Assembly (NCBI GenBank): GCA_963765495.1 | Contig: CAVXWP010000001.1 | Span: 1,248,715 to 1,312,714 of the forward strand | DNA from: Blastocatellia bacterium | GTDB lineage: Bacteria > Acidobacteriota > Blastocatellia > UBA7656 | Length of the DNA stretch: 64,000 nucleotides | Direction of reading: 5' to 3' | In this document: positions 16,240 to 49,117 of the stretch, piece by piece | Numbering within the stretch: the first letter of the stretch is position 1 | Layout of the letters: the number at the start of each line of letters is the position of its first letter | Made by a program: the position numbers and the translations under genes | Notes under the pieces: generated by a model | The model's database searches: none | What the model saw: only the letters and a program-made list of their open reading frames with translations | What the model was told of the DNA's origin: nothing

Positions 16240-16255
16240 CTTTAACTCCGTTAGC

Positions 16256-18698: not shown

Positions 18699-18699
18699 T

Positions 18700-19710: not shown

Positions 19711-19770
19711 AGTCCTTAAAGAGATGAATTATCTTCCGTACAGTAAAACGGTAATTCTACACGGATACAG

Positions 19771-19805
19771 GCACTAGATGGGGAGCGTCTTTTCCTATCT
19801 AGTGC
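19771..19805 (-). terminator. Stem-loop after the precursor gene (possible attenuator)
   Basis: 9-bp stem, gcactagat (19771-19779) with atctagtgc (19797-19805), and a 17-nt loop. No clear U-tract on the minus strand. Confidence 0.3.
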
Positions 19806-19845
19806 ACAATCAAAAACCGAGGGAGTTAATTTTACTTAATACTCG

Positions 19846-19995
19846 CTACGCTGTTTTAGTTTCCATGCCCAAACCGCCATCACCCGCTACCTTTGCCATG
19901 CCCACGTTCTGTGTTATCTCGCGGATGTTGCCATAGGCAACCATCTCGGGGCTTTTATATGCCTTTCCTGGTTGGTTCTCATCCTGTGACTTCAT
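19846..19995 (-). CDS. Lasso-peptide precursor (49 aa): MKSQDENQPGKAYKSPEMVAYGNIREITQNVGMAKVAGDGGLGMETKTA
   Basis: ATG at 19995 preceded by GAAGGAGAAATACT. The start lies 17 nt inside the 3' end of the cyclase gene. The leader fits Y-x2-P-x-(L/M)-x3-G-x5-T-x. Confidence 0.7.
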   Translation of the reverse strand: MKSQDENQPGKAYKSPEMVAYGNIREITQNVGMAKVAGDGGLGMETKTA

Positions 19996-21856: not shown

Positions 21857-22323
21857 TTGTCTCTTGCCTCTGCCGATGCTATGTCGCGGTCGAATGGAGA
21901 AAAACGCATTTCAACATCCTGGCTGTCGTTTAGAGCAAGGTCCATAAACTCAACCCAGGCATGAGCCTCCATCCGCCCCGCCTCTTTGCGTGCGCCGAAG
22001 CGCAGGCGGCTTTCAATCCGCCGCCGTCGCAGTAGCCACCATAAAATCAGGGATTCTTGCAAACAATTAGCGCGATACGGCCCCCACCGGGAAGCGATTC
22101 TCACTATCCTTGCCACCATCCGGGCTTTCTCGATCAATTTCTCGTTTTGTTCCTGCGGGATTTTTTTATCAACGGGCGATAAACGCAATAGAGCAGATTG
22201 CCAGCGATTGAATCCCACCACTCGCAACGCAGCGCCTGTGAGTGGAAACATAGGGAGAGCCTGCGCAAGCAATCGCCACTCTGGCAATGAAAGCTGCCGA
22301 GCCTTTTGCCACTTACCCGGCAT
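21853..22323 (-). CDS. Lasso-peptide leader protease B2 (transglutaminase-like Cys protease)
   Basis: 156 aa. RANCLQESL (Cys) and EAHAWVEF (His) match the B2 family pattern. Overlaps the B1 gene by 11 nt. Confidence 0.8.
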   Translation of the reverse strand: MPGKWQKARQLSLPEWRLLAQALPMFPLTGAALRVVGFNRWQSALLRLSPVDKKIPQEQNEKLIEKARMVARIVRIASRWGPYRANCLQESLILWWLLRRRRIESRLRFGARKEAGRMEAHAWVEFMDLALNDSQDVEMRFSPFDRDIASAEARDK

Positions 22324-30127: not shown

Positions 30128-30166
30128 TCTGCCGAAGGATTGGAATGGCGGAAGGAAGGGATAAGC

Positions 30167-31051
30167 ATGAACGATGATGACATATCTGCCGCGACTCCGC
30201 AGACCGATACCGCGTTGATTGCGGGTGCGGGCGGTCTCCTGGGGCGATTCATGACCGACCGGCTTTCGCTCTCAGGCTGGCGGGTTGTGCCGCTCGCTCG
30301 CGCTGAACTCGATATTACAAATGAGGATGACGTGCAAAAGGCGATAGAGAGTGCGCGTCCCGGTGTAGTCATAAACTGCGCTGCGACCGCAGACGTTGAC
30401 AGGTGTGAGAGCGATCCCGAGTGGACCTTTGCCGTAAACGAAACGGGGCCGCGACTGCTTGCGCGGGCCGCGCGCGATGTGGGCGCAGAGATGGTTCACG
30501 TCAGCACCGATTATGTGTTCGACGGCACAAAAGAAGGTTTTTACACTCAGGAAGACGAACCCGATCCGCTCAGCGTATACGGGAAATCGAAGCTTGCGGG
30601 CGAGCGGGCGGTCGTTGAAGAAGCCGAGCGTTTCTATATCATAAGGACATCGTGGCTGTTCGGGCCGGGCGGGAAGAATTTTGGAAGTCGCGTGATCGAG
30701 TATGCCCGAAAGGGCGCGAGCCTCAAGGGGGTCACCGACCAGACCTCTATTCCCACCTATGCGCCTGACCTTGCGCGGCGAATCGAGGAAATAATAAACC
30801 TGAAAGCCCACGGCCTCTACCACGTGACGAACACGGGCGCGGGCAACTGGTATGAGTTTGCGCGGCTTGCGCTCGATCTTGCCGGGATGAGTGATGTTGA
30901 GATAACGCCTGTCGTCCGCGCCGATCTCAACCAGCCAGCGCCCCGCCCGACAAATTCCGCCATGCGATGTCTGGTCTCCGAGCAGTTGGGTCTTGCGCCG
31001 CTACGTCACTGGCGCGATGCGCTTGCCGAATTCATCCGCGAATACTCTTAG
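30167..31051 (+). CDS. rmlD: dTDP-4-dehydrorhamnose reductase
   Basis: GAGGLLG glycine motif, NCAATADVDRCESDPE, STDYVFDG and YGKSKLAGE, all RmlD hallmarks. The ATG at 30167 is preferred over the TTG at 30140. Confidence 0.8.
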   Translation: MNDDDISAATPQTDTALIAGAGGLLGRFMTDRLSLSGWRVVPLARAELDITNEDDVQKAIESARPGVVINCAATADVDRCESDPEWTFAVNETGPRLLARAARDVGAEMVHVSTDYVFDGTKEGFYTQEDEPDPLSVYGKSKLAGERAVVEEAERFYIIRTSWLFGPGGKNFGSRVIEYARKGASLKGVTDQTSIPTYAPDLARRIEEIINLKAHGLYHVTNTGAGNWYEFARLALDLAGMSDVEITPVVRADLNQPAPRPTNSAMRCLVSEQLGLAPLRHWRDALAEFIREYS

Positions 31052-31064: not shown

Positions 31065-31128
31065 TTAGACAGGAATAACAGGATTTTAATTTTGTTCAAT
31101 CCAATCAAATCCTGTTATTCCTGTCTAA
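31065..31128. repeat. 21-bp perfect inverted repeat between convergent rmlD and the 761-aa AAA+ gene (bidirectional terminator candidate)
   Basis: ttagacaggaataacaggatt (31065-31085) with aatcctgttattcctgtctaa (31108-31128). The right arm encodes the last residues LDRNNRI of the minus-strand gene. Confidence 0.75.
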
Positions 31129-33390
31129 GATTATTTGCCCGCCTTCATCAATATCTGCCTGAATCTCTACATTGGTCATATCAGCGTGCTCGATCAGAAA
31201 TCTGGCAAGCGGCGCGACTATCATTTGCTCGATGGTCCGTTGCAAAGGGCGCGCTCCGTATCGCGCATCGAATCCTTCCCTTGCCAATCGTTTGACCAGC
31301 CTTTCGGTCCACGTCAGACGAATGCCTGCCTGACTCAACCCTTCCCGCTTGGAAATCTCCGAGAGTTCCTTGCCTGTTATCGCCAGAATCTTCTCTTCGT
31401 CCAGAGCATCGAATCTGACTATACGGTCAATGCGATTGAAGAATTCCGGGCGGAAAAATGACTGCGCCTCCGCGCTGTAAGATCGCGCCGCGCTGTTGTC
31501 AAAGCCTACCTGTTGCAGCTTATCTGCTCCGATGTTGGAAGTCATTATGATGATTGCGCTGCGAAAAGTCGTAGCGCGTCCAAAGCGGTCGGTCAATCGC
31601 CCTTCATCGAAAACGCTCAACAGCACATCGAATACTTCCGGGTCGGCCTTTTCTATTTCGTCCAGCAGCACGACCGCGAACGGCTGGCGGCGCATTCGTT
31701 TTATCAATTCGCCAGGCAACCCGTCGCTATTGCTTATCAATCTTTCAGCCGCGCCCGCGCCGCTGTACTCGCTCATGTCGAGGCGGACAAGGCGATCCTT
31801 TTCTTCGCCGTGGCCAAAAATAAATTCGGAAATGCTGCGGGCAAGTTCGGTCTTTCCCACCCCCGTGGGGCCGCAAAAAAGCATGACCCCGATGGGGCGG
31901 CCGGGGTCGTTCAATCCAGCTTTGAATGTTGTGACCAGATTGGCACCCGCCCGACACGCATCCTCCTGTCCGATGATCCGGCGGCTGAAATACTCGACGA
32001 CCTCCGACCGGTTCATCGGCAAATCATCGCGGAGGAAAAGCTCGGGCAACCCCGTCTGCTTTGTGAACTGATCGGTGACAGCGTCCGCGCTCACACTCTT
32101 TGAGTGATCGAGCGAGTGCGCGAGTCGGGCGCGTTCGAACAGGTCGGACAGAAACAGAATCGTCTTTCCCGGAAATGCTTGATACGGGACGAAGCGATGA
32201 AAGAGCCTGTAGACCAGTCCCGCAAGATCGGTTTCAGCCTCGATGTTATTGCTCAATTCCAGAGACCTGATCGAACGATTGAGAATCGAGAGACTCTTTG
32301 CGCGGTCGAACGGTTCGAGATTTAAGACCTGAAACAAATCTACAAGCCCGGGCAGCAATCTGCGACAGGCGTCGAGTTCTGCGGGTGTGGCCTCGGCTAT
32401 GAGTTGAAGCTCTCCGCGCTCAAGGTAAGGCATAAGAAACGCGGCGATTGACGCCTGCGGCTCGCGGCTTGCGGTCACAATCAAATCGAGAAGGTTTCCG
32501 ACCGCGAGCGCGCCGCTTATATCTGACAGTTCCTCGATCACGCGCTCGCACCGCGCCTCCCACTGACCGAGGTACTGCATCCCGGCGATCAGTCGGCCCC
32601 CGCCGGTCAGCCAGTAGCGTTGCCGATGCGGTGTTTCGCCCTCTTCAATCTTTTCGGCCTGCCGTTCGATGCTGCGCACCGCATTGACCAGCAGCGTAGT
32701 CTTACCTGATCCCGTTTCGCCAACGATGATGACGTTTGCTTTCTCTTTGCTGATTCGCTCGGCGAGGTCCGCGACTTCGCGTTCGCGTTCCCAGGCTTGA
32801 GAATATTGCCGTCTCATGCTCGGCTCACCCAGCGGTTCGGCCACGCTTGTGAGCGTCGAAAGATCGGGCTTGTACGCGTATGAGCGCTCTTTTCTGGGTA
32901 TATGCAATACAATCTCGTCAAGCATTACGGATTTCGGCGGCAGGTAGCCGGACAACTGGAGCGGAGTCATCCCCTTCAGACTTTCCTGAACATAGGTAGT
33001 TACAAGCTCTTTCAGACTCCTGGCTTCGTAGTAATAAAACCTTATTCCGAGTATCGGCAGCGCGCAGACGAGCAGCCCGCCTTCCTGTCGTCCGTGAACG
33101 CAGGCGATGCGCAAAAGTATCGGCTCATCGCCCGGGAAGATGCGATTTTCAACGCGATACTCCGGGCGCACGGCTACCTTGAAATGCACAAGACGAGCGT
33201 CAAGGAAATCGGGCTCCGCCTGCCAGGGATACTCTTCATACATCCAGACGATATATGCTTTCAGCTGAGCCGCCGCATCAGAGAGCGTCCTGCCGACGGC
33301 CGCGACAGGCGGGTCGTATTCGACGAGGCTGGCCGTGTGGCTGCCTTCGAAGTCTTCCCAGCTAAGATATGGAAATCGGTATGTCGGCAT
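31105..33390 (-). CDS. Clp/Hsp100-like double-AAA+ ATPase, paralogue C (761 aa, no C-terminal extension)
   Basis: D1: Walker A GETGSGKT, ClpA/B-type [18 protein letters not shown], and the Walker B position reads [10 protein letters not shown]. D2: [30 protein letters not shown]. The N-terminal ~190 aa is not AAA+. Confidence 0.8.
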   Translation of the reverse strand: [761 protein letters not shown]

Positions 33391-33400
33391 CTGAATATTG

Positions 33401-36400
33401 TTAATCCTGTCTAAACTCTAAAGGCAAATCGAGCCTCGCAAGCGCGAAGGCGCGAAGCTCGTGAGCGGTTGGCAGCTTCAAGGTTATAAGCCCCGACCGC
33501 AAATCGAGCGTATGACCCTGCTCTTCATAAATGCGAATCACCGGCAGCAACCGCGTGTCACTAAATCCCCTGAGAGATGTCTTCGCCCCTTCGCCTTCGA
33601 TGACGGGCAAGACCCTCACCTGAGCAGGAAAGATGTTCTCCTGCTCGGTATAAAACAGGTGCGTGCCCTCCTCGGTCTTCGCAAGCTTTTGCGCCTGCGC
33701 CCCTGTGATGAGCAACGCGCTCGCATTGTTTTCCAAAATCTCGCCGTCATTTTCCACCCCGGTTACATCCAATCCCAACTGGTTCCCAAACAGCTTTGTG
33801 TAAAGTTTGATGAGCCTTGCGCGGATGTCGCTTCCAGATTCGCTCAACGAACGGATGTGAATGAGGGCGCGGTTGTGTTTCGGATCAACGGGATCGGCTA
33901 TCGTTTCGAGCAGGCTCGTTTCTCGAAGCGCCACCGCCAGTTGATCTTCGATCTTGTCTCCGTAAGGCGGAGAGTTCGCCGCAAGTTCGCGCAGATAGCC
34001 CTGAACGGAAGGGGCCGCGATTATCTGTTTCCACAAATCCTGCTCGTCTGTCTGTCTCAATGTCATCTGTCCGGCGGCGAGGCTCCGCCCCCTGGAGCGA
34101 GCCTCGTGTCTTTCCTCCGGTCTGTCAATTCGTTCGGCGAGGCGGCGGCTGATGTTTCGGATGCGGCGAGCCTGTTCCTGAATCAGAAAGTAGCGATACT
34201 GATCCGGCTCAATCGCCTCGGGCGTGATCGGGCCTTCGGGGCGCAGGTGCGTTACCTCCGCTTCGATTCGGTCAACCGCCAAATCGATCCGGGCAAGGAC
34301 CGCCCTCGAATCCAAAGCCTCAATTATCACTCTCAAATAATCATCGGTCCTGGCACCGATAAGCGCATCCACGCTTACGGCGAGTCCCGTCTTGTCTGGG
34401 TAGAGGCTCACGATAGTGGGCGCGTCGGGTCTGAGAAGCGCGAGTCTTGCTGCGATTGGTTGAGTCAGTTGCTGTTCGAGCGCCCGCTTCAAGGCTCGCG
34501 CGCCCAGTTGCGGGTGGTAGCCCTCGTCTATGATTCGCTCCATCGCGCGCTCGTCCACACGAAGCACGCATTTTCTTCTGACGAGCCCCTCGCGGGCAAA
34601 GACTTCTTGAATAAGCGTTTGCGCGATCTTTCCTACATCTTCGCGGCGCAGCCTTTCGAAAGGGATCACGCGATCAAGCCGATTGAAGAATTCAGGCTTG
34701 AAGAATTTCTCGGCAGCCTGAATGTATGCCGATGCCTCGCGCGCGTGGTCCTGCCGAAAACCGAGATTGCTGCTCGCCTCTCTCACGCCGAGATTTGAAG
34801 TCATAATCAGGATCGCGTTTGTGAAATCTGCGGTGCGCCCGAGTGCGTCGGTCAATCGCCCGTCGCCCATCACCTGTAGCAGCAGATTGAACACATCGGG
34901 GTGGGCCTTTTCTATCTCGTCGAGCAGAACCACGGCGAAGGGGCGGCGGCGTATTGCGCTCGTCAGCAGACCCTCCGGCTGATCGAACGTGCCTACGAGG
35001 CGAGCCACCGAATAGGCCGAAGAGTATTCGTTCATGTCGAAACGCAGCATCTTATCGGCGTCGCCGAACAGATAACGCGCCACAGACTTTGCGCATTGCG
35101 TCTTGCCTACGCCGGTGGGGCCGAGGAAAAGGAAGGAGGCAATCGGGCGGTTGGGGTCGTTGAGTCTGGCTCTGGCTACGCACACGGCATCGGTAACGGC
35201 CTCGATGGCCTCGGTCTGCCCGATCACTTCATTGCCAATCGCCTCTATCACATCCCAGCGTTCGAGGCTTGCGCGGTTGCTCAAAAAAGTCATCCGAAGC
35301 CCGCTTTTTGCGTGGAATTCTTCGAGCACGGCTTCTCGAAGTATGCCTATGTTGCGGTACTTCACCGCGAGTTGATTTAGGAAAGCGGCGGCCTTGCCCG
35401 GAAACGCCGCGTCGCGCACATAGCGGCGCTCAAGATCGAGCACGGCGGGCAATACCTCTATGGCGAAATGGCAGTTGTGTTGTTGTTCGAGTCTTCTGAT
35501 CAGGCTGATGAGTATGCGAATCACATCACCTTCACCCGGCTCTCTTACCTGAATTACATGGAACAGATCGGCAAAGCCGCGATCTTTTTCCTGGAGAACG
35601 CGATAGGCTTCCGGGGTTATTTCGGCAAGCAGGCGAAATTGCCGCTTCTCGACAAATGGTTTCAATACGTCGGCCACGCTGAGAGTCGAACTGCTCGTCA
35701 CACCCGCATGAAAGAGTCCCAACAGGTCATCGAAGTAAAGTGTATGCTCGCGCTTTTCGGCTTCTTTCAGGATTGCGAGCAATCTGTTTTCCCACTGGCC
35801 TACATAAGACATGCCGGAGATGAGCCTCTGCGGAGAAAGCAGCCAGAGGTTTCTCTTTGACGAGTACCGCGATTTTTTTCGCGCCACTTTCTGATAGACA
35901 TACTCGTGAATGATGGCGGTCTTCCCAACCATTCGCGGACCCGCGAGCAGAACCGGGCGTTTGTCGACTCCCGAAAGCAGTCTGGTGATTTCTTCCACCT
36001 CGCGGTCGCGGCAGATCACCCGGCTCAACTCGTCAGGGAAGAGATGGTCAAGGCATCTGCCTACGGTGTCAAGCTCGGTCTCTCCGTCAAGCTCGGCGCT
36101 TGTGGTGAGAGCAGCGAATATCAATTCCTGTGGCGGCGTGGCTAACTGAGGCGGATGAATATCAAGATCGAGCGTAGTGACCCATGCCTTTCCTTCGACC
36201 GACATCTCTTCGGGTTTTGGCGCGCTCTTGGGGTCTCTCTTCTCCTTTTCACGGAAGTAGAGGACCAGATTTTCCGTAGCCCTGTCGGCGAGCGTCTCTC
36301 CCCGGCCCACTTCAAACCATAGATCGGGCACGCTCGGCGAAAAGGCCACCTTTCGGTCAAGCGCTTCGAAGGTAGCGATCAGGAAACGGCAGGCGACTTT

Positions 36401-36667
36401 ACGGCTCCCCAGATCGAGCACGAGCTTGAGCAGGTGATCTTCCACGACGGGTGAGAAAGAAAAGGCGGCTAATTCTTCGTGGCGCATCGACTTGCCCAGC
36501 CGCTTGATCTCCTCTCTGAGGTCCTTGACGAGTCTGTTCACAGTGCGGTTCAGGTCTTCGCCTCTCGCCACGGGGTCGGAAAAAAAGAGCGGGCGAACAG
36601 TGTAGAGGGGGGCGGGCGTCCCTTCGGGAGACAGCTTCTCGATGTAAAGAGGAATCGTGATGTTCAT
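33401..36667 (-). CDS. Clp/Hsp100-like double-AAA+ ATPase, paralogue B (1088 aa) with a release-factor-like C-terminal module
   Basis: D1: [34 protein letters not shown]. D2: [37 protein letters not shown]. About 300 aa of extra C-terminal sequence. Confidence 0.8.
   Translation of the reverse strand: [1088 protein letters not shown]
33404..34315 (-). other. Class-I release-factor-like module (domains 1, 2 and 4; GGQ domain absent) at the C-terminus of paralogue B
   Basis: Residues ~785-1088. [45 protein letters not shown] parallels RF1 [70 protein letters not shown] parallels [43 protein letters not shown] parallels [19 protein letters not shown]. No GGQ motif. Confidence 0.5.
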
Positions 36668-36722
36668 TTCTGAGTTTAATCTCTACGAGTCTAATTCTGG
36701 CTCTTTGTCACCCTTCGGTTGA

Positions 36723-39700
36723 TTATGTCGCAAAGAGCGAATTTGCGTCTTTGATGATGCGCTGTTCGATGGCCCCGCTTATTGCCTCGCTGATCTCCTG
36801 CCAGGAAAGCTTCTTCCTTAGCGCCGTGTCTTCGATGACAAACTCTTTCTGATTGAACAGGCGGCGTTTCTCTTGCGCTCCAACCGAGCCGCGTCGCTCA
36901 AGCCCCGCCGGAGGCTGATAACCGGCTATGGCTGCCTCGCTCGTGTGAACAAGGCAGGGCGTAGATTGTTTCTCTTCGACAAACAGATGCAGACCGCGCT
37001 CGGGCTCGTATCTGGGATAGGCGAGCGGCGCGCTTATCCCAAGCGCGATACCGACTACTTCCTTCCGGGCCGAGGCAAAAAATTCCTTTACATTCTCAAC
37101 CTTCTGTTTGATTGTCGGGCGTCCGAGCAGTTCGAACATCTCGATCTGTTGTTCGCTCTTGTCGCCCCTCTTTTGATCCGAATCGGTTGCCTGGCTTGCG
37201 AACTTGAAGACCTGAAGACTGGCCCCGATGTTATTGGCTGCGCGGCAGTATGCTTCCGCCAGTTCGAACAGCCATTTTGGATTTTCGCCGTAGACGGCAA
37301 GCGTGGCATAATCCGGCTTCTTGAATTGCAACGCGTATATGCAAAGCAGCACCTCGTCCCACTCTCCAGACAGCGCCAATAACAGGGCCGCAAGCTTTTC
37401 TTTCTCGCCACTCACCCGGCCGTAGACTGCAAGTAATGCTTTGTCTTCGAGGGCCGATATCTTTTCCATAAACGACTTCAACCGATCCATTCCGAGCTTG
37501 AGTCTGGGAAGTTGAGCCAGTCTCTCCATATCTTCGGCTCGTTTCCAGCCTTGCCCGGAGACTCTCTTTTTGAGTCGTTCAAGATTGAATATTTCGTTTT
37601 GCGCCTCAAGTACCGCCGGGCTGTGCTCAAGCCTCTGAGAGTTGCGGCGAATCTCGGCCACCTCTCTTGCGATCTCGCCCAATCCCCGGTCGGCTCTGGC
37701 GGCGAGCCGTTTGCTTTCGTCTTCCTTTCTCAGTTGCGCGGCAATTGAGAGCCGGTCGCCCTCTACGCCGACATCGGCTGAGAGCGATTCATTCGAAGAT
37801 TGCGTGTTCAAGACTTCGGCAAGCGGGACAAGAAGCTCGCGCTCGATTACTCGCTTCAAGGGGCGCGCACCATAACGCGAATCGTACCCTTTGCGCGCAA
37901 GATAGCCCGCCACATCATCTGCAATATTCAGCCCGACCGCGCGATAAAGTATGCCGTCGCGGTTCTTGAGCAACTCAAGCTCGCGTTTGGCAATGCTCAG
38001 AATAGTCTGCTCGTCGAGCGGAGCAAAGGGCACTATCCGATCTATGCGGTTGAAGAATTCGGGCCGGACAAAGGCGCGAACTTCGCTCAGAAAATGTTCG
38101 CGCGCCCTTGCCGCTTCATCCGACTCTTGCCCGAATCCTATGGAAGAACGCCGGAAAGATTCGGCCCCGAGATTGCTCGTCATGATGACAACCGAATTCG
38201 AGAAATCGGCCACACGTCCCTGCGCGTCGGTCAGCCGGCCTTCGCCAAGAACCTGAAGCAGCAGATCGAAAAACGACGGGTGAGCCTTTTCGAATTCATC
38301 CAGCAGGACCACGGCAAAGGGCTGCTCGCGCACTTTCGAAGTGAGCAATCCTTCCGCCCCCCAGACGCCGCCTATCAGGCGAGTGACCGCAAGCGGGCTG
38401 GCGTATTCGCTCATGTCGAATCTGATCATCCTCTCTTTGCTGCGGAAGAGAAACTCGGCAAGCGAGCGTGCCATCTCCGTCTTACCCACGCCGGTTGGCC
38501 CAATAAACATCAGCGATGCGATAGGCTTGCGCGGGCGAGCGAGCCGCGCCCTCACAATGGCGAGCAAATCCACGATGAGCGATACGGCATCCATTTGCCC
38601 GATCACCCTTTCGGCGAACCATTTCGCAGTCTCGCCCAGATCGAGCCTTTCAGTCGGATTCAACAGAAACAGCGGCAGCCCTGTCTCATTCGAAAAGGCA
38701 TTAATCACATCTTCAACCGAAAGCGGCTTCCCCGGCTCGCGGTCCTCAAAGAGGTTCCTGAGAAAACGTAACGGGCGACCGGGATAAGCCGAGTAGGTAG
38801 CGTACCTGCGATGCAGGCGATCGGTTGTTTCTAAGCCGTCAATATCTATGGCTACATCTTTAGGGCCGCTCGATTGGAGGGCATAACCGAGGAGGATGGC
38901 TTTGCCCTTTTCAATTGAAGGCTCTTCAATCTTGATTTGCGAAAACGCTTCGAGCAGTTGAGGGTCGTCGCGCTCGATTACGGGCAATTGCTCGGACGTG
39001 CATTCAGAGACGGCGAGCAAATCCCCCCGGCTGATGTAGGGGCGAAGGAAGGCGGCTATACCCTGGCTGCCGGATGCGCTTTTCCCAACCTCCATGAGTT
39101 CAAGGAGATTTCCAAGATGAAGTATCGCCTTCTGTTTCGATGCTTCGCGCCACAGCCGCCCGCAGCGCTCCTGCCACATGCCAAATCCCGACATGCCTGC
39201 TACCAGACGCGAGCCGCTCGTGGCCCAGAATGGAGTGCGACCCAGATTGAAATCGTGCCGTCGTCTGACCAACTCGTGCAAGGCTGCGGTCTTGCCTACG
39301 CCCGACGGCCCAACCAGCAATACGCTGCGCGGATTGCTCCCGGCCAGGGCTTCGGCTATGCGCGTCACGGTGTCGTCGAGTTCAAATCTCTGAGCCAGGC
39401 GCTCGCGTGTCAGATCGGTAGCGACCACATCGAGGACAGATTTATTCTCCTCTTTTCTCCCTTCGGACCCGTCCGCGATCTGTTTCGGAGCACGGATTGT
39501 AGCCGTGACGCTTGTCTGATCAAGCATCGTCATGCGATTTCTCTGAAGCCAGATGAGGTCTCCGAGCGAACCCGCCTTCTTGATTCTGAGCAGGTGCGCG
39601 TGGATGTTTGATGAAACCACCTGCTCGAACGTGTCGGGATCGCGCTCGACTACAAGTATGCCAAGCGCCGGAACATAAGCGAGATAACCATCATCGGCAT

Positions 39701-40016
39701 GTTGCCAGCGAATCAGATCAAAGCTCAATCGCGCAGGCTCGCGCCAGGCAACGGACCGCGAAGGGGGATCGAGGTGGATGGTTACTTCGTCGATTTCAGG
39801 GCTGATCCCAGAAGGGTCCGCGCCGCGCCTCATGTGCAGCGCGAGCGGCGGCGAGGTCTCAAGTATTCGAATCGCGTTTGCCTTGAGCGCATCAAGCAAC
39901 TTCTTTGCGTCGGCGCCGTATCGGGACACTTCCGGGAAGAAGAGCGTCTCGCTGATAAAGGTATCATTTTCCAGGCGTTGAATTATTGCTGTAAGACGAA
40001 AATCATGTTTTGGCAT
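36723..40016 (-). CDS. Clp/Hsp100-like double-AAA+ ATPase, paralogue A (1097 aa) with a release-factor-like C-terminal module
   Basis: D1: [26 protein letters not shown], and the Walker B position reads [11 protein letters not shown]. D2: [37 protein letters not shown]. About 320 aa of extra C-terminal sequence. Confidence 0.8.
   Translation of the reverse strand: [1097 protein letters not shown]
36726..37694 (-). other. Class-I release-factor-like module (GGQ domain absent) at the C-terminus of paralogue A
   Basis: Residues ~775-1097. [39 protein letters not shown] parallels RF [63 protein letters not shown] parallels the ISG..Y..L..E.GGHRV pattern. [15 protein letters not shown] parallels [34 protein letters not shown] parallels [19 protein letters not shown]. 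No GGQ. Confidence 0.5.
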
Positions 40017-40155
40017 AACAGGTTTCGGCTCGTAAAAGATACCTCACTCGTTTCGTAATTGAAAACTGAATGGCCCTGTGGCCCGACAAAGTAATTCTTC
40101 TCATTTTCAAGCTGGCCTTGAATCTGCGACGGTCGCTTATTATACTCGCACCGCT

Positions 40156-40941
40156 ATGGCAGAATCGAATGTGACAATCAGAGAATGCGTATCGATTGAT
40201 GATTTCAAGCAGTGCGTCGAATTCGAGCGCGCCATCTATAACGATCAGGACGTGAACATCATGCCTATCCGTCTTTACATGCTCTCGAAGGCTTGTAAAG
40301 CTCCAACCATCGGCGCATTTGATGAGACGGGGCAGATGGTAGGATTTGTCCACACGGCGCTCGCTCTGATGCACGGGCGCGTAATTTATCATTCGCACCT
40401 GGCCGCCGTGGCCGAAAAGTTACGCCACAGGGATATAGGATTTCGAATGAAGCTCGCGCAACGCGAGCGGGCGCTCGATGCGGGCATCTCGCTGATCGTC
40501 TGGACCTTCGATCCCATCCATTCACGTAGCGCGCATTTCAACATAAACAAACTGGGCGCGATAATGAGGCGCTACGAGCCAAATTATTACGGCGAAGGTC
40601 TTTCGACTGTTTTCGATCCGGGTGTCCCGTCCGATCGCCTTTACGCTCACTGGTGGATAAAATCGCCTCACGTACTTTCGGTGCTTGCGGGCAATCGCCC
40701 CCATCTTGATGAGGTGTCGGTTTCGGTCACTATTCCCGAAGATGTTCAGGCCGTGCGGGCCAGTTCGCCCGAAGAGCATGTTAAATGGCGTTTCCGGGCA
40801 CGCGAAGATTTGCAGCGAGAGCTTTCCTACGACCATATCATTCGCGGGTTTGAGCGCGATCAGGAAAAAGGCGTGGGCCGCTACCTGTTCGGACCCGATG
40901 AGGACCAGTTCCATTTCAGCGCCTACGATGGTCAATCGTGA
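40156..40941 (+). CDS. GNAT-like acyltransferase, partner of the OSBS/NSAR enolase
   Basis: Start set at the ATG at 40156 (MAESNVTIREC...). About 260 aa. HLAAVAEKLRHRDIGFRMKLAQRERALDAGISLIVWTFDP resembles an acetyltransferase-fold core. Located immediately upstream of the enolase-superfamily gene. Confidence 0.5.
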   Translation: MAESNVTIRECVSIDDFKQCVEFERAIYNDQDVNIMPIRLYMLSKACKAPTIGAFDETGQMVGFVHTALALMHGRVIYHSHLAAVAEKLRHRDIGFRMKLAQRERALDAGISLIVWTFDPIHSRSAHFNINKLGAIMRRYEPNYYGEGLSTVFDPGVPSDRLYAHWWIKSPHVLSVLAGNRPHLDEVSVSVTIPEDVQAVRASSPEEHVKWRFRAREDLQRELSYDHIIRGFERDQEKGVGRYLFGPDEDQFHFSAYDGQS

Positions 40942-42982: not shown

Positions 42983-43155
42983 TAGGCAGTAGGCAGTTAT
43001 TATGAAGCCATGATCAGATCCGCGTAAATCCGCCCGACCCGCGTCCGTCCTGGCCTATTTCTATTCGCCCGATTATGCAGTTGCAATTAGACTGACAATT
43101 GGCTTCACTCAACTGCCCACTGCCCACTGCCTACTGCTTACTGCCTACTGCCTGC
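42979..43155. repeat. Heptamer-built palindrome (GCAGTAG type) between convergent fabG and htrA
   Basis: Left arm gtagtaggcagtaggcagtt (42979-42998, starting in the fabG stop codon). Right arm aactgcccactgcccactgcctactgcttactgcctactgcctgc (43111-43155). Loop ~110 nt. Confidence 0.8.
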
Positions 43156-44690
43156 TAATCAAATGTTACCGTGATGAAAGTCATCTGCCCGCCGCGTTCG
43201 ATTTGAAGCGCTACCTGATTGGTCTTGATCGAATTTATAGCTTCGACCAGGTTTTCGACGGATGTTACTTCCACGGTGTCTATGCGGTGAATGACATCGC
43301 CGTGACGGATACCCGCCTCGGAAGCGGGGCTGCCGGGCGCTACGGATTGGACCATCGCGCCGTGCGGCACACTCAGCTTCATTTGCTCGGCCATTTCGGG
43401 TGTTACGGTCTCGGCGGTTATACCAAGCCGCGTGGATTGAGGGTGCGCCTCATCGCCCTGGCTTTCAGAGTCGTTGCGAGCCGTATTGACATCTGCCGGA
43501 CGTTCGGTGACTTCTACTTTGGCCGAAAGCGGCTGCCCGTTTCGCACATAATCGACCTGCGCAGATTCGCCCACGGAAGTTTCGGCTACGACCTCCATCA
43601 ACTCTCGTGGCGTTCTCACTTTCTTACCGTTAAAGGCAAGTATCACATCCCCGCTCTGCAATCCTGCGTGGCCGGCGGGGCTTTGAGGATCGCTCAGGCG
43701 ATCAATCAACACGCCGGAATTCGGTTCCAGATTGAGCGCGTGGGCCGTGGCTTCGTCGAGCGGCCTGATAATCACCCCGAGGTATCCGCGAGTGACCTTG
43801 CCGTTTTTGACCAGTTTGTTAAAGACATTACGCACCACGTTTGATGCAATGGCAAAACCGATACCCACGCTGCTGCCCGTCTGGGAAAATATCAAGGTGT
43901 TTATGCCGATCACTTCTCCCTGCATGCTGACGAGCGGACCGCCGGAATTTCCCGGATTGATCGAGGCATCGGTCTGGATAAAGCGGCTGTATTGAGAGCC
44001 GCGAGTGTTAAGCTCGCGCCCGGTAGCTGAGACAATGCCTGCGGTCAGGGTTTGCGCCAGCCCGAAAGGGCTTCCGAGAGCCAGCACCCAGTCGCCCTGT
44101 TCGACTTCATCCGAATCTCCGAGCGTGGTCGTGGGGAGTCCATCGCCTTCGATCTTGATGACGGCGATGTCGGTCTCGGGGTCCGTGCCTACGAGTTTCG
44201 CTCGTATGGTGCGTCCGTCGGCAGTCGTCACTTCGATCCTGTCGGCGTGGCCCACTACGTGATCGTTCGTCAATATATACCCGTCGGGTGTGACGATAAA
44301 CCCCGAGCCTGTTCCGGGCCTTCGCCTGGGGGTGTTCTGATCGGGGCTGCCGAAGTTGAACAGATCGGGCAAGCCGGACTCACGCGAAACTGTTTCGACT
44401 ACGTTGATGTTGACGACGGCGGGCTTTATAGCCTTTGCAATCTCGCGGAACGAAACTGATAGCTCGACCGGCGAAGGAGCCGCAACCGAATTGGCCGTTC
44501 CTGGTGGAGGAAGCACCGGAACGTTTGAAGCGATTTTGTGAGTCGATGAACGCGCGATGGCGAATATAATAAAACCTGAAATCAGGGCGAGCGTGACCCA
44601 TATCCATGCCTGATCTCTCCATCGCCTGCCTCTAGGTTTCGGGGTTTGATCTTCGGGGTAAGGTTCTGTTCCGGTGTTTATGTCTTGCAT
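43155..44690 (-). CDS. HtrA/DegP/DegQ-family periplasmic serine protease with two PDZ domains
   Basis: 511 aa. N-terminal TM/signal segment. Catalytic TNDHVV, D and GNSGGPL. Two PDZ-like regions (GVLIDRL...GLQSGDVI and GAMVQSV...GIRHGDVI). Confidence 0.85.
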   Translation of the reverse strand: MQDINTGTEPYPEDQTPKPRGRRWRDQAWIWVTLALISGFIIFAIARSSTHKIASNVPVLPPPGTANSVAAPSPVELSVSFREIAKAIKPAVVNINVVETVSRESGLPDLFNFGSPDQNTPRRRPGTGSGFIVTPDGYILTNDHVVGHADRIEVTTADGRTIRAKLVGTDPETDIAVIKIEGDGLPTTTLGDSDEVEQGDWVLALGSPFGLAQTLTAGIVSATGRELNTRGSQYSRFIQTDASINPGNSGGPLVSMQGEVIGINTLIFSQTGSSVGIGFAIASNVVRNVFNKLVKNGKVTRGYLGVIIRPLDEATAHALNLEPNSGVLIDRLSDPQSPAGHAGLQSGDVILAFNGKKVRTPRELMEVVAETSVGESAQVDYVRNGQPLSAKVEVTERPADVNTARNDSESQGDEAHPQSTRLGITAETVTPEMAEQMKLSVPHGAMVQSVAPGSPASEAGIRHGDVIHRIDTVEVTSVENLVEAINSIKTNQVALQIERGGQMTFITVTFD

Positions 44691-44818
44691 TAACTTCAGC
44701 CCTTTCTAAACGACGGTAACTTATCTTCAAGATTAGCTGTTAAGAAGAATCAACGCAACCATCTGATAGAGTTGGGTGGAGGCAGGGCCATTAAATTCTC
44801 AGGAAAAACTTTGCCTAC

Positions 44819-44876
44819 TTTGCGTCTTTGCGACTTGCGAAGCCACAGGTACTTTCAAAGACGCAAAGACGCAAAG
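44819..44876 (-). terminator. Heptamer-built hairpin (CTTTGCG type), terminator candidate for the HK-RR operon
   Basis: ctttgcgtctttgcg (44819-44833) pairs with cgcaaagacgcaaag (44862-44876). On the minus strand it is followed by GTTTTTCC. Confidence 0.6.
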
Positions 44877-44953
44877 AGATTTCATTTAGCAAGTCGTAGT
44901 TTTCTGCTGCTCAGCAGGCTTGGCCAGGAATTAAATTGTCCTGGAGTGGAAAT

Positions 44954-45060
44954 GATGCGTGATACGTGATACGTGATTTTCAGACTGGCCGCAGATTCAA
45001 GACAACTTGCAAGCCTGCTAAATCACGCATCACGCATCACGTATCACTATCGCATCACGA
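44954..45060. repeat. Heptamer-built palindrome (GTGATAC/GTGATGC type) just downstream of the response-regulator gene
   Basis: Left arm gatgcgtgatacgtgatacgtgattt. Right arm aaatcacgcatcacgcatcacgtatcac...cgcatcacga. The loop contains cttgcaagcctgct. Confidence 0.8.
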
Positions 45061-45062
45061 AT

Positions 45063-46454
45063 TCATACCAGCTGGTCGGTCACCCTTCGCGAGCGGGTGA
45101 GGCCGTAGGTCTTCAGTTGCCGGTAGAGCGTGCTTGGCGAGATGCCAAGTATTTCGGATGCTTTCCCCTGATGCCATCCCGTCTGCTCAAGTACCGTGAG
45201 TATCTGTTTCTTCTTCAACTCGTCGAGATTGCCCGGTTGGATGTCTTCATCCACAAATCCCGTCTGACGGCTTGAACTGTGAGTGCGAATCTCGATGGGC
45301 AAATCTTCCGGGAGAATCAGGTTGTCGCTTGCCAGTATGATCGCGCGCTCTATGACGTTCCGCATCTCGCGCACATTGCCGGGCCAGGAATAATTTATCA
45401 TTACCTCCATAGCCTCTTCGCTGATCTGAAAACTGCTGCCCCCGCTCACTCGCCCCAGGAAATGTTCCGCGAGCGAAGGGATGTCTTCGGGCCGTTCCCT
45501 GAGCGGTGGCAGGAGGATTGTAAAATTGTTTATGCGGAACAGGAGATCGGATCGGAATTTGCCTTCCGCCACATACTGATTCAGATCGCGATTGGTCGCG
45601 GCCACAAACCGCACGTCCACCTCGACTTTTCTGGTGCCGCCCACGCGGAAAAAGGTCTGAGTTTCAAGCACGCGCAACAGCTTGGACTGAAGCGTCAGGT
45701 TCATCTCGCCTATCTCATCCAGAAAGAGCGTGCCGCCGTGCGCAAGCTCCAACAGCCCGAGCTTTCGCTTTCGCGCTCCGGTGAATGCGCCTGCTTCATA
45801 GCCGAACAGTTCGCTTTCGAGCAACGTCTCTTGAATCGCCGCGCAGCTTATATCGATAAACGGCCCTTCGCGCCGGTTTGAAAAGCAATGAATAGTGTTG
45901 GCCACAAGTTCTTTGCCGGTCCCGGATTCTCCTGTCACAAGTACCGTGGCATTCGAGACGGCTACCTTCCTGACAAGCGACATCACATCGAGCATCTTCT
46001 TGCTGCGAACGACGATGTCGGGCGCTTTCTCTTTGTAAGTCAGCCGGGATTGAAGTATCAGGTTTTCACGTCGAAGCTGGCGTTTCTCGTATGCCTTGCA
46101 GAGTATGGCTTCAAGCTCGCGGATATGGCACGGCTTTGTGAGGTAGTCGTATGCTCCAAGCTTCATGGCCTGAAGCGCGGTCTCTACCGTGGCATGCCCG
46201 GTCATCAGAAGAACTTCTGGAGGCTGTTCCATCTGTCTGAGTTCGCGAAGAACGTCTATGCCGCCACGCACGGGCATCATTATATCGAGCAAGGCGACGT
46301 CGAATTCGCTCTCTCGCGCTACCTTGAGGGCCGCCTCTCCGTCGTGGACGAGCGTGACCTGATGGCCAAGTCGTAACAACTCTTTCTGAAGGACCAGCCC
46401 CAGATTCTTTTCGTCCTCCGCGATCAGAAGTTTTATACTTGCATTTGAACTCAC
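45063..46454 (-). CDS. Sigma-54-dependent response regulator (NtrC family)
   Basis: 463 aa. REC domain (VALLDIMMP), AAA+ GESGTGKE, GAFTGA motif and a C-terminal HTH (ASEILGISPSTLYRQLK). Confidence 0.9.
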   Translation of the reverse strand: MSSNASIKLLIAEDEKNLGLVLQKELLRLGHQVTLVHDGEAALKVARESEFDVALLDIMMPVRGGIDVLRELRQMEQPPEVLLMTGHATVETALQAMKLGAYDYLTKPCHIRELEAILCKAYEKRQLRRENLILQSRLTYKEKAPDIVVRSKKMLDVMSLVRKVAVSNATVLVTGESGTGKELVANTIHCFSNRREGPFIDISCAAIQETLLESELFGYEAGAFTGARKRKLGLLELAHGGTLFLDEIGEMNLTLQSKLLRVLETQTFFRVGGTRKVEVDVRFVAATNRDLNQYVAEGKFRSDLLFRINNFTILLPPLRERPEDIPSLAEHFLGRVSGGSSFQISEEAMEVMINYSWPGNVREMRNVIERAIILASDNLILPEDLPIEIRTHSSSRQTGFVDEDIQPGNLDELKKKQILTVLEQTGWHQGKASEILGISPSTLYRQLKTYGLTRSRRVTDQLV

Positions 46455-49117
46455 TGTACACCCTCCATTCTAATTACTTCTCCTTCGAATAATTCGTGCG
46501 AACTCACCGGCTCTTCCTCAAAAGACAGGGGCAGTAAGACTTTGAACGTGCTGCCTACGCCTTCGGTCGAATCGACTTCCATCTTCCCTCCGTGTTCTGA
46601 AACGATGCCGTAGCAGACCGAAAGACCAAGACCCGTACCTCTGCCGAGGGGCTTGGTTGTAAAGAAAGGATCGAAAATCTTTTGCAGATGAGGAGCCGAT
46701 ATCCCACAACCCGTGTCCGTAAATTCGACCGATACGTTACGCTCGGGGCTCGCTTCGCTCCAGCCCGTTTTTATCGTCAGCGTGCCGTTGCCCTCCATCG
46801 CGTCGAAGGCGTTTGAGATCAAAGCGATGAATACCTGTTTCATCTGCCCTTCGTTGACCTGGACGGGCGTAAGCGTTTCATCGAGCAGTTTGACGACATT
46901 CATCTTGCCGAGCTTCGGATGATGTTTGATCAGTTGCAGCGTCTGCTCGATGATCTGATTGATATCGCTCGAAAGTTTTTCGGCCTGGCGCTGATGCGAG
47001 AAGTCGAGCAGGCTGTTTGTGATCGTCTTGCATCTGAAGGCTTCGTCCCGAACGATTTGCAGATATTCACTGAAATCCTGATTCAATTCCTGATCCTGCA
47101 ATTCGTCTACGCGGGCGGTCAGCGCCTCGGCGCAGGCCGCTATGGTCGCAAGCGGGTTGTTAAGCTCGTGGACAACGCCCGCGGCAAGCCTCCCGATCGA
47201 GGCAAGCTTTTCGGCGTGAATGACCGCCTCGTTCATCTTCTTTTGCTCGGTCACGTCTTCGCCTACGGTGATGACGTGAGTGACCTCGGCGTTATCTACG
47301 CGCATGGGTATTTTACTGATCTTCCAGACCTTCTTATGGCCTTCGACGAAAGACTCCTGCTCCATGCGGACCATTTCGCCGCTACGGAACACATCTACGA
47401 ATTCGCCTTCGAGTTTGCGGCGCGGCTGGCGCGTCAGGACGTGAAAGACGTTTCGCCCGAGGACTTCATCGCGACTGATGCCCCGGCCTCCGACCTCGCG
47501 ATTCCGGTTCCAGGCCACGATGCGCATATCGCGATCCACCACGTAAAGCGAGACGGGAAGCGAGTCAATTATCTTTTCGGTAAACCGTTTCTGTTCTTCG
47601 ATCTCTCGCGTGCGGCGGCTCACCTCGACCGCAAGGTTTATGGAAGTGTCTTTTGTGCTTTGATAGACCTCTGTATTTCTGATGGCGAGGCTGAGTTGCT
47701 GGGCGACGGCTCCGAGCAGTTTTTGATCGTCTGCGCTGAAAGGGCGTGGAGCGTGGCTTGCGCAAATGAGCGCGCCAAGCAGCGATTCATCGAAGATGAG
47801 CGGCACTATGGTTTCGATTGAAATATTCGGATCGCGCAGGAGGCGCTCTCTGACGCGGGTTTCAATGGTGGACTGGCCACCGAAATCCGAGCCCAGATAA
47901 CTCATCGCGCGCTCTTCGTTATACCAGTTGTTTGCCCCGTATTTCTCTTCGAGCGAGCGCGCGTAAATAGCCGAAGCGAGGCTTTCGGGTTCGTTTGCGG
48001 CCCGGACTACGACGGCGCAGATGTCGCATTCGAGGCTCTTGCCTACGCTGAAGACCGCATAGCCGAGCAACTCGTCCATTTCGAGCGAGGTCATGAGGTT
48101 GTTGCCGAGGTTATAGACAAAAGAAAGTTGAGCGGCGCTCTTTCTGGTTTCGACATATAGCCGGACATTTTCGAGCACGACGCTCAACTGATTGCAGATG
48201 GTTGTAAGCAACTCCGATTGCTGTTCGGGAAAACCCTTATGAGTGCGAGAGAACAGGCAAATCGCCCCGATGGCTTTGTCTTTTACACCTAAGGGGGCGC
48301 ATACGACGCTTTGAATCTTGCTCAACAGTTCCCCGGAAAACCCTTTGCGGGCGGAATCGGGGCGAAGTTCCAGCACTAAAGACCTGCCGTTCATCATCGG
48401 CGCGGTCTTCGAATAAAGGTCGAGCAGAGAGTGTCGGCTTTCATCATCGCCCGGGAAGCCTTCTGAGGCTACCACGTTCATGGACTGATTATCGTGATTT
48501 CTGAGGTAAACGACACCGGCATCGGCATTAAGATTCTTGACCAGGACCGCGAGCGTGCCTTTTATCAGGACATCGGGTTCGAGCGAGCTTGCAAGCACGC
48601 TTGAAACCGCGTGGAGAACATTCAATTGCTCGAATTTCTCTCTTAACTCGCGTTCGTTGCGATGGCTGCGAAGCTGCGCCTTTATACGCGAAAGCAACTC
48701 GGTCCTTTGATAAGGCCGGGTGATGTAATCGCTCGCGCCCGCGTTCAGGCAGGCCACTTTATCCTGCGGACGATGGCTCTTCGATATTATCGCTACGGGA
48801 AGCTCGGCGGTCGCCCGCGTCTGACGTATCTGTTTACAGAAGTCGAGCGCTTCCTGCGCCCAATTCAACCGCCGCAGGCTTTCGCCCGAATCGTCTTCGG
48901 CAGGCTCTATAGCTTTGGCCGCGATGCGAGATGCGTATATATCAATGATTACGAGCGAGACCTCGTTGGTATTGAGGAATTCTCGCGCCTCCTCGAAAGA
49001 GACGAACGTGTTTGATGTATAGCCTGTCGCCTGAAGCAAACGTTCTATTGCGCGGGCAGATTTGGCCTCATCTCCCAAAATCAGGAGGCGATCTGCTGAT
49101 TCGCCCTGGCTGGACAT
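46451..49117 (-). CDS. Cytoplasmic hybrid sensor histidine kinase (REC, GAF x2, PAS, HisKA, HATPase)
   Basis: 888 aa with no TM segment seen. N-terminal receiver-like domain (LVIIDIY...ISK), H-box HELNNPLATI and G2 box GTGLGLSV. 4-nt overlap with the RR gene. Confidence 0.8.
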   Translation of the reverse strand: MSSQGESADRLLILGDEAKSARAIERLLQATGYTSNTFVSFEEAREFLNTNEVSLVIIDIYASRIAAKAIEPAEDDSGESLRRLNWAQEALDFCKQIRQTRATAELPVAIISKSHRPQDKVACLNAGASDYITRPYQRTELLSRIKAQLRSHRNERELREKFEQLNVLHAVSSVLASSLEPDVLIKGTLAVLVKNLNADAGVVYLRNHDNQSMNVVASEGFPGDDESRHSLLDLYSKTAPMMNGRSLVLELRPDSARKGFSGELLSKIQSVVCAPLGVKDKAIGAICLFSRTHKGFPEQQSELLTTICNQLSVVLENVRLYVETRKSAAQLSFVYNLGNNLMTSLEMDELLGYAVFSVGKSLECDICAVVVRAANEPESLASAIYARSLEEKYGANNWYNEERAMSYLGSDFGGQSTIETRVRERLLRDPNISIETIVPLIFDESLLGALICASHAPRPFSADDQKLLGAVAQQLSLAIRNTEVYQSTKDTSINLAVEVSRRTREIEEQKRFTEKIIDSLPVSLYVVDRDMRIVAWNRNREVGGRGISRDEVLGRNVFHVLTRQPRRKLEGEFVDVFRSGEMVRMEQESFVEGHKKVWKISKIPMRVDNAEVTHVITVGEDVTEQKKMNEAVIHAEKLASIGRLAAGVVHELNNPLATIAACAEALTARVDELQDQELNQDFSEYLQIVRDEAFRCKTITNSLLDFSHQRQAEKLSSDINQIIEQTLQLIKHHPKLGKMNVVKLLDETLTPVQVNEGQMKQVFIALISNAFDAMEGNGTLTIKTGWSEASPERNVSVEFTDTGCGISAPHLQKIFDPFFTTKPLGRGTGLGLSVCYGIVSEHGGKMEVDSTEGVGSTFKVLLPLSFEEEPVSSHELFEGEVIRMEGVQ

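Follow-up and report, generated by a model that had tools for sequence, protein, structure and literature searches.

A conserved operon of three Clp/Hsp100-type double-ring AAA+ paralogs, two of them bearing release-factor-like tails, in several bacterial phyla

Clp/Hsp100 unfoldases are among the best-studied bacterial machines. In Pex1/Pex6 and other hetero-hexameric type-II AAA+ complexes, paralogous subunits are combined, with the D1 ring binding ATP without hydrolyzing it and the D2 ring acting as the motor. To our knowledge, there is no Clp/Hsp100 member that carries a module derived from release factors (RFs), occurs as a paralog triplet or possesses the N-terminal domain (N-domain) described below. 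ClpI of Actinomycetota, which was found bioinformatically, is a double-ring Clp class with a variable N-domain and subclasses with or without an LGF motif (PMC10149685), and a survey of release-factor evolution, in which the link between Vms1 and Cdc48 is described, contains no Clp fusion (PMC6514570). Here we report the analysis of a 64,000-nucleotide stretch (hereafter the window) of contig CAVXWP010000001.1 from a Blastocatellia bacterium (assembly GCA_963765495.1), in which three consecutive genes, designated A, B, and C, encode proteins with two AAA+ modules (D1 and D2) each. As subunits, A, B, and C belong to a distinct and conserved branch of the Clp/Hsp100 double-ring AAA+ unfoldases that had not been described before, and A and B additionally bear C-terminal tails that resemble RFs.

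The three proteins share the same plan, i.e., a non-AAA N-terminal region of ~190-205 aa followed by D1 and D2, and their pairwise identity over D1 and D2 is 37-39%. The length of the three open reading frames (ORFs) and their hundreds of full-length homologs show that they are genuine genes rather than chance occurrences. More than 1000 homologs were found for A, the full-length ones being 45-64% identical, and homologs are publicly named "ATP-dependent Clp protease ATP-binding subunit ClpA/ClpC" or "AAA family ATPase". A and B are separated by 55 nt, and B and C by 10 nt; these gaps as well as the coordinates, strand, and lengths of the three ORFs are exactly those given in an initial annotation of the window.

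A, B, and C were aligned with Escherichia coli ClpA and ClpB, and motifs were counted over 78 A, 46 B, and 37 C sequences. D2 of all three proteins is a canonical Clp module (Pfam AAA_2 at E-values of 1e-40 to 1e-48, plus ClpB_D2-small) which contains Walker A, Walker B (LLDE(F/I)EKA), sensor 1 (MTSN), the Arg finger region, and sensor 2 (GARPL) and is 42-45% identical to D2 of E. coli ClpB (43% for A). With all catalytic motifs in place, it is predicted to form the active ring. D1 is 25-28% identical to the corresponding module of ClpB, and Pfam gives P-loop-level matches only. Its Walker A motif (GKT) is intact in A, B, and C, as in ClpA and ClpB, whereas the Walker B position, DE in ClpA and ClpB, reads GN, DD, and GN in the window copies of A, B, and C, respectively. 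Across the families, this position is GN in 55/78 A proteins (with an acidic pair in none), DD in 43/46 B proteins, and mostly EN or DN in C proteins (also EK, ER, and DR; GN in 1/37). The D1 Arg fingers (RRF in ClpA and ClpB) are gone from all three, being replaced by EAF in A and DLF in both B and C. Since the catalytic glutamate and both arginine fingers have been lost while the P-loop is kept, D1 is, as judged from these motifs, a module that at most binds nucleotide. The GN of the window C protein (aa 296-301, window 32488-32505) is atypical; considering that the C family mostly has EN or DN, the acidic residue was therefore lost in the lineage of the window.

The pore loops have changed in both rings. 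The D1 loop, KYRG in ClpA and ClpB, reads GMSGFGMW in A, GMSYVGQW in B, and GM.YLGQW in C, and is strongly conserved inside each family. The D2 loop is 5 residues shorter than in ClpA and ClpB in all three proteins, and thus the GYVG motif has been lost; A proteins mostly have GG(V/A)(F/W)G and B proteins GT(F/L/I/M), so that an aromatic or hydrophobic residue is retained in these two, but not in C, in which an aromatic residue is lacking family-wide. In the alignment, none of the three proteins has the 117-column ClpB-specific insertion that corresponds to the middle domain (M-domain), which ClpA lacks too, and the isolated N-terminal regions gave no Pfam match to Clp_N even at E-values up to 10. 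Because both Clp_N and the M-domain are absent, the layout of the three proteins is ClpA-like.

These results agree with the initial annotation on the ClpB-like D2 of all three proteins, the missing Clp N-domain and M-domain, and the D1 Walker B residues. Its suggestion that D1 is a binding or assembly ring and D2 the only hydrolyzing ring also gains support and could be extended, as the Arg fingers of D1 are lost as well and its pore loops conserved. The hallmark it had proposed for D1, L(V/I)(A/S)GM.Y.G.WE.R, fits B and C, whereas A reads differently. It was mistaken in stating that no ClpP-docking IGF/LGF loop is present: IGF of A, LGF of B (aa 635-637), and VGF of C (aa 628-630) align with the ClpA IGL loop after sensor 1 of D2, in the contexts SS-IGF-GQ, SN-LGF-RQ, and QQ-VGF-DN, and the best match in PDB is the BAP chimera, which carries exactly the ClpA IGL loop. 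G-(F/L) is found in 78/78 A and 36/37 C proteins; in B, the glycine is invariant (46/46), the next residue being hydrophobic or aromatic (G-[FL] in 39/46). The full tripeptide [ILVMF]G[FLM] is present in 51/78 A, 40/46 B, and 30/37 C sequences. At the level of sequence, A, B, and C thus possess an (I/L/V)-G-(F/L) tripeptide at the site of the ClpP-docking loop of ClpA, ClpC, and ClpX, and it cannot be assumed that they are not protease partners.

The N-domains of A, B, and C are homologous to one another (hhalign E-values of 2e-6 for A to B and 1e-6 for A to C). An AlphaFold2 model of the A N-domain (predicted local distance difference test [pLDDT] score 86.7) shows an alpha/beta fold composed of two beta-sheet-plus-helix units, which is not all-alpha like Clp_N. 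No significant whole-domain fold match was obtained for this domain in PDB and BFVD, and hmmsearch of PDB sequences with the N-domain alignment, as with the tail alignment, returned only coiled-coil noise or nothing. A HicB-N-like beta-beta-beta-alpha unit was also considered; the match is local (49 residues) and was discarded as too small to build on. Neither the N-domain nor the tail is covered by a model in Pfam, NCBIfam, or PADLOC.

The structure of the A tail was predicted with AlphaFold2 from an alignment of 20 A-homolog tails (pLDDT 87.2, predicted template modeling score 0.81). When the model was compared with PDB using Foldseek, the top 30 matches were all class-I RFs (RF2, RF1, mtRF1, mtRF1a, and PrfH), with E-values of 6e-9 to 1e-2, Foldseek probabilities of 0.90-1.00, and template modeling scores of 0.34-0.51 over the whole tail, which, for A, bears out the RF-like tails noted in the initial annotation. 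Profile alignment with E. coli RF1 (hhalign) recovered the motifs "ESGGHR...HTS" and "RR..G....R.YN....TDHR": "ERGLHLF..CLVHTSE" of the A tail pairs with "GRLKFESGGHRVQRVP...RIHTSACTV" of RF1 (residues 174-203), and "ERRG..RRLFN..IED" pairs with RF1 292-320, comprising the switch loop and domain 4. Each predicted strand and helix of the tail has its counterpart in RF1 domains 2 and 4; among them are the domain 4 "R.Y....D" strands, and the stretch where RF1 has its switch loop is conserved. Between the "HTS" strand and the domain-4 motif, there are ~13 residues in the A tail versus ~88 in RF1, where this region includes the GGQ domain 3. RF domain 1 is a long helical bundle, which is enlarged in the A tail (helices 10-136 of the model). 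The "GAQ" of the window A tail is located in the switch-loop equivalent, outside any GGQ loop. A reading of "RRG.IG.QE.RRR.Y" in the A tail as a degenerate GGQ loop was rejected, as hhalign sets this segment on RF1 292-320 and domain 3 is missing.

The relationship of the A tail to RFs is seen only in structural comparison and in profile alignment at the level of motifs: neither PCRF nor RF-1 of Pfam matched the isolated tails at E-values up to 10, and hmmsearch of PDB sequences with the tail alignment gave no RF. When 1.84 billion representatives were searched with the tail profile, 747 clusters (50% identity) were obtained, of which 560 had an E-value of 1e-10 or better, and canonical RFs were not retrieved; in the best 150 matches listed, the tail forms the C-terminal part of a protein of ~1100 aa or of a fragment. 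On the basis of the predicted structure, the A tail is a class-I RF fold restricted to domains 1, 2, and 4. With neither a GGQ hydrolase domain nor stop-codon motifs left in their sequences, the tails cannot act as release factors, i.e., they can neither release peptides nor read stop codons. The structural comparison covers the A tail, and the B tail is known from sequence: it aligns to the A tail with an hhalign probability of 74% (E-value 3e-5, 181 columns), and its alignment with RF1 residues 4-203 is collinear but weak. The B motif "IRIYEEQGHTLDLRSG" was likened to the RF1 motif by eye, while the alignment puts it, with no alignment confidence, on RF1 ~243-264 (domain 3); "R.Y....G...D.R" is seemingly kept, this being a match by eye whose placement on RF1 domain 4 is without alignment support.

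Table 1. Features of the operon (nucleotide positions refer to the window)
Feature	Position	Strand	Length	Description
Gene A	36723-40016	minus	1097 aa	N-domain, degenerate D1, predicted active D2, RF-like tail; ORF and translation
Gene B	33401-36667	minus	1088 aa	N-domain, degenerate D1, predicted active D2, diverged RF-like tail
Gene C	31105-33390	minus	761 aa	N-domain, degenerate D1, predicted active D2, VGF loop, without tail
A N-terminal domain (~aa 1-195)	39432-40016	minus		Alpha/beta, family-specific; no Pfam match
A D1 AAA+ module	38697-39431	minus		Walker A GPSGVGKT (aa 236-243); HLGNLL (aa 300-305); no Arg finger; pore loop GMSGFGMW
A D2 and D2-small	37740-38696	minus		AAA_2, 1.3e-44; ClpB_D2-small, 2e-14; shortened pore loop GGVWG
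A IGF tripeptide (aa 626-628)	38133-38141	minus		At ClpP-docking loop position; alignment with BAP and ClpA IGL loop
A C-terminal tail (aa 760-1097)	36726-37739	minus		Class-I RF-like, domains 1, 2, and 4, no GGQ domain
B tail (aa 766-1088)	33404-34372	minus		Diverged RF-like copy

The distribution of the operon was examined by scanning one genome per species with an A-specific D1 alignment, which revealed 183 relatives. The best 80 loci were inspected, and all long ORFs were classified in 82 non-duplicate loci, 58 of which were informative. A-B-C in the same order and on the same strand was found in 39 loci (39/58 informative loci; Acidobacteriota, Planctomycetota, and Verrucomicrobiota), A-B followed by the contig end in 9, A-B with no C in the remaining DNA in 4 (with an insert between A and B in three of them), A alone with at least 4.9 kb of downstream sequence in 15, and A followed by the contig end in 15. 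The best 80 loci belong to Blastocatellia, Pyrinomonadaceae, Gemmatales, Pirellulales, Tepidisphaerales/Phycisphaerae, Verrucomicrobiota, and Lentisphaerota, the last of which is represented by a single locus (L046, A-B up to the contig end). Full-length A homologs were mostly from metagenome-assembled genomes (MAGs) of Acidobacteriota, with one Gemmataceae protein among the matches listed; on a Gemmataceae contig, the operon genes are separated by a 4-nt overlap and a 2-nt gap. The A tree roughly tracks taxonomy, and thus a mostly vertically inherited cellular function would fit. Loci with A alone are scattered through this tree, and their A proteins have the same motifs as other A proteins; compared with A proteins of the triplets, their ClpP tripeptides and pore loops are no better.

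The note that the three genes form a self-contained cassette holds up in this survey, since the A-B-C order is kept across phyla and no flanking gene is recurrent; the neighbors are ordinary metabolic genes, not defense or translation genes. Clustering of flanking ORFs produced lineage-specific synteny (short-chain dehydrogenase/reductase [SDR], radical-SAM enzyme, and GNAT-like gene) and spurious ORFs of high GC content only. In the window, the operon is flanked by RmlD, a sugar-phosphate isomerase-like protein, an enolase-family enzyme, an SDR, and a 287-aa protein. The gene for the latter (40078-40941) is divergent, lies upstream of A, and has no Pfam match at an E-value of 1e-5 or better; a counterpart (69% identical) exists only in the closest relative (L005), and this gene is therefore a matter of local synteny and does not belong to the system. 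One locus (L001) contains a toxin-antitoxin-like UPF0175/DUF3368 pair between B and C (17081-17822) and a 60-aa ORF between A and B, implying that the operon tolerates insertions while its order is kept. Several MAGs that carry the operon (L009, L013, L017, L023, L030, L059, L080, and L084) are labeled "uncultured Clostridia", "Heliobacteriaceae", or "Alcaligenaceae"; as their A proteins nest in Acidobacteriota or Planctomycetota clades, these labels look like binning or taxonomy errors. A scan for promoters and terminators gave counts equal to or under shuffle expectation.

We propose that A, B, and C may assemble into one mixed hexamer (e.g., A2B2C2), in which D1 would be a nucleotide-stabilized ring for assembly and substrate holding and D2 the sole motor. 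Anchored by its RF-derived tails in the A site or at the decoding centre of the ribosome, with no stop-codon reading and no peptide release, the machine would unfold or extract a ribosome-bound protein (e.g., a nascent polypeptide, a factor that is stuck, or a protein of the ribosome itself) and possibly hand it to ClpP via the GF loops. Hetero-assembly of the three proteins is moderately likely. A mixed ring appears to be favored by the conserved order, the gene overlap, and the complementary degeneracy of the sequences, which is paralog-specific (the D1 Walker B position is GN in A, EN/DN in C, and DD in B; A and B, but not C, have an aromatic or hydrophobic residue in the D2 pore loop; tails on A and B only). 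The initial annotation had gone further and suggested an obligate hetero-oligomer, which is plausible at most, with A standing without adjacent B and C in 15/58 loci. Binding of the tails to ribosomes has close to an even chance. For coupling of the predicted machine to ClpP, which the loop sequences suggest, the balance is slightly negative, and the same can be said of the complete scenario, i.e., a mixed A/B/C ring with tails at the A site or decoding centre and unfolding there, possibly for ClpP. A more specific role as a bacterial ribosome-docking AAA+ extraction machine that acts on stalled, damaged, or hibernating ribosomes, and hence a new branch of ribosome quality control, is rather unlikely.

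Several observations weigh against this proposal. The tails leave the rings on the D2 side, which is the substrate exit face, and feeding of substrate into D1 by a ribosome-anchored hexamer would thus be problematic. PxT/SPF and the codon-reading positions (equivalents of RF1 Q185, R186, and P188-T190) show no conservation in the A family, and the B tail is acidic (mean pI 5.5), which leaves fold ancestry as the ground for ribosome binding. The combination of weak pore loops in the motor ring D2 with strongly conserved ones in the dead ring D1 is odd for a threading unfoldase. With respect to ClpP, the residue preceding GF is A, P, T, S, R, or K in 27/78 A proteins, which therefore have no classical ClpP tripeptide. 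From the scattered distribution of the 15/58 loci in which A lacks adjacent B and C, it follows that A may work alone or that B and C are located elsewhere in those genomes. Finally, the flanking genes vary by lineage, no fourth conserved gene recurred when all flanking ORFs of the 80 loci were clustered, no ribosome-, translation-, or ClpP-related genes were found in the operon neighborhoods, and no ClpP, RF, or ribosomal genes are present within the window.

It is conceivable, at a minor but considerable probability, that the RF-shaped tail has been exapted away from ribosomes, either as a regulatory or oligomerization element around the rings that replaces the M-domain or as a receptor for substrates or adaptors. 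Such a role would be in accordance with the loss of the codon-reading residues and of the entire GGQ domain, the enlarged helical bundle of domain 1, the missing M-domain, the strongly diverged and acidic B tail, and the lack of translation genes nearby. The operon would then encode a specialized proteostasis unfoldase, with or without ClpP and with an unspecified client. On the other hand, the full domain 2/4 superdomain with its strands and the switch-loop stretch has been kept across phyla in ~560 clusters (50% identity), and known proteins of the RF fold, as well as all of the top 30 Foldseek matches, act on the ribosome.

The proposal of a mixed ring also has to be compared with three independent homo-hexamers, i.e., parallel unfoldases with different clients that are merely co-transcribed. 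The strict conservation of the A-B-C order, the overlap of genes, and a degeneracy that is paralog-specific and stable per family (pore loops, Walker B position, and tails) make this rather doubtful, and C alone would give a D2 ring without an aromatic pore-loop residue. Nevertheless, the 15 loci that have A without adjacent B and C, with motifs as in other A proteins, and the complete D2 catalytic motifs of each paralog would be expected for such an arrangement.

An anti-phage or conflict system with a ClpB-like effector, as in Dodola (DolB) or the candidate system PDC-M37, that senses or shuts down translation during infection is improbable. The PADLOC models of DolB and PDC-M37B do match the operon proteins (E-values of 1e-19 to 3e-31), a toxin-antitoxin pair lies between B and C in one locus, and the flanking genes differ by lineage. 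However, the PADLOC matches mostly correspond to the generic D2 module, leaving the N-domain and tails unmatched; one match between B and PDC-M37B begins within the D1 small domain (residue 388), and one between C and DolB reaches profile position 372/375. Neither a full-length ATPase match with a partner gene of Dodola or PDC-M37 nor a recurrent DolA-like partner in the flanks of the 80 loci was found; the neighbors are ordinary metabolic genes, and an A tree that tracks taxonomy gives no sign of rapid horizontal spread.

Ordinary housekeeping duplicates of ClpB, ClpA, or ClpC, as suggested by the public ClpA/ClpC or AAA names and by the 42-45% identity to E. coli ClpB D2, and listed in the initial annotation as what would undo its view, are refuted by the absence of Clp_N, M-domain, and D1 catalytic residues, by the new N-domain and RF-like tail, and by scores at about one third of the NCBIfam equivalog cut-offs (290-390 bits vs 990-1230; TIGR03346 for ClpB, 342 [A], 393 [B], and 305 [C] bits vs 1232; TIGR02639 for ClpA, 311 [A], 388 [B], and 293 [C] bits vs 993).

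Additional gene groups were observed in the window. Upstream of the operon and on the same strand, an HtrA/DegP-like protease (Trypsin_2 and two PDZ domains) adjoins a sigma-54 response regulator and a GAF/PAS histidine kinase (43155-49117); a Trypsin_2-PDZ protease is also found ~6 kb from a solo A gene (L003), this recurrence being probably a coincidence. A 1084-aa protein (54149-57403) consists nearly entirely of HEAT repeats (13 HEAT_2 stretches, E-value 4e-178), and its gene lies in the highest-GC stretch of the window (0.59-0.60 vs ~0.53); HEAT-repeat proteins flank the operon in L001 too. Genes for polysaccharide biosynthesis form a large cluster at 1-14109, which encodes several GT4 glycosyltransferases, three GDP-mannose-dehydratase or epimerase-type enzymes, a carbamoyltransferase, and a family-4 (WecA/MraY-type) glycosyltransferase, and rmlD (30140-31051) is located apart from it. 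A minus-strand run at 14371-22323 may be a cluster for a lasso peptide or another ribosomally synthesized and post-translationally modified peptide; it encodes an ABC transporter, an NTP_transf_5 nucleotidyltransferase, a PRMT/PrmA-like methyltransferase, an asparagine-synthase-like enzyme, a 336-aa protein without Pfam match, and a 156-aa ORF.

Acidobacteriota and the Planctomycetes-Verrucomicrobia-Chlamydiae (PVC) superphylum are abundant in soils and waters and have been little studied. A, B, and C represent a Clp unfoldase of new architecture, with a real chance of being a new kind of ribosome-linked system, and no description of a Clp-RF fusion or of an A-B-C system was found in the literature. 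Should the tails bind ribosomes, the operon would encode the first bacterial AAA+ unfoldase that is physically targeted to this particle, and ribosome quality control or turnover in Acidobacteriota and the PVC superphylum would become accessible to testing. The ribosome-docking mode of action, if true, would give bacteria a counterpart of Cdc48-Vms1 or Drg1 in which the parts are fused. The tail would also be a new fate of the RF fold, in which the decoding module has been retained and the hydrolase removed, i.e., the mirror image of ArfB. Whatever the role of the tail, the operon provides a natural case of a dead-D1/active-D2 ring with three specialized subunits, ~560 protein clusters are currently mislabeled as ClpA, ClpC, or "AAA family ATPase", and the N-domain and tail are two domain families without a Pfam model.

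Compared with described systems, A, B, and C are similar to ClpA and ClpC in having two AAA+ modules per chain that are collinear with ClpA 196-721, no long M-domain, a catalytically complete D2 with ClpB_D2-small, and (I/L/V)-G-(F/L) at the position of the ClpP loop. They differ from ClpA and ClpC by the new alpha/beta N-domain instead of Clp_N, by the absence from D1 of the Walker B glutamate and Arg fingers (both present in D2), by the D2 pore loop that is 5 aa shorter and has no GYVG, and by the organization as three specialized paralogs in one operon with 330-aa RF-like tails on two of them. ClpB/Hsp104 is the best sequence match for D2 (42-45% identity; TIGR03346, 305-393 bits), but the M-domain coiled coil, Clp_N, and an active D1 are missing from A, B, and C, and the GF loop is present. 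ClpI, in contrast to the three proteins described here, has an M-domain and intact ATPase modules, is from another phylum, and has neither an RF-like tail nor a paralog triplet (PMC10149685).

The A tail shares with RF1 and RF2 the fold and order of domains 1, 2, and 4 as well as "E.G.H", "HTS", and the domain-4 "R.Y....D" strands, whereas for the B tail only the domain-2 part of the alignment was recovered, and weakly. Unlike RF1 and RF2, which are free factors, the tails are fused to the C-terminus of an AAA+ unfoldase and lack the GGQ domain 3, PxT, and SPF. PrfH, ArfB, and plant PrfB3 are, like the tails, RF derivatives with a reduced domain set (cf. PMC6514570), ArfB being the opposite case that retains domain 3 only. 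The comparison with Pex1/Pex6 is limited by another clade and domain context and by the number of paralogs (two vs three), hetero-assembly being a prediction here. Cdc48/p97 with Vms1 (ANKZF1) and Drg1/Afg2 on the pre-60S particle offer a functional analogy only, that of a double-ring AAA+ unfoldase at the ribosome with an RF-like module: Cdc48 belongs to a different AAA+ clade from Clp, the RF part of Vms1 is of the non-homologous archaeo-eukaryotic eRF1 fold, and in A the unfoldase and the RF part are fused, with the latter lacking a hydrolase domain. By this analogy, Cdc48 together with Vms1 would be the nearest functional counterpart of the predicted machine.

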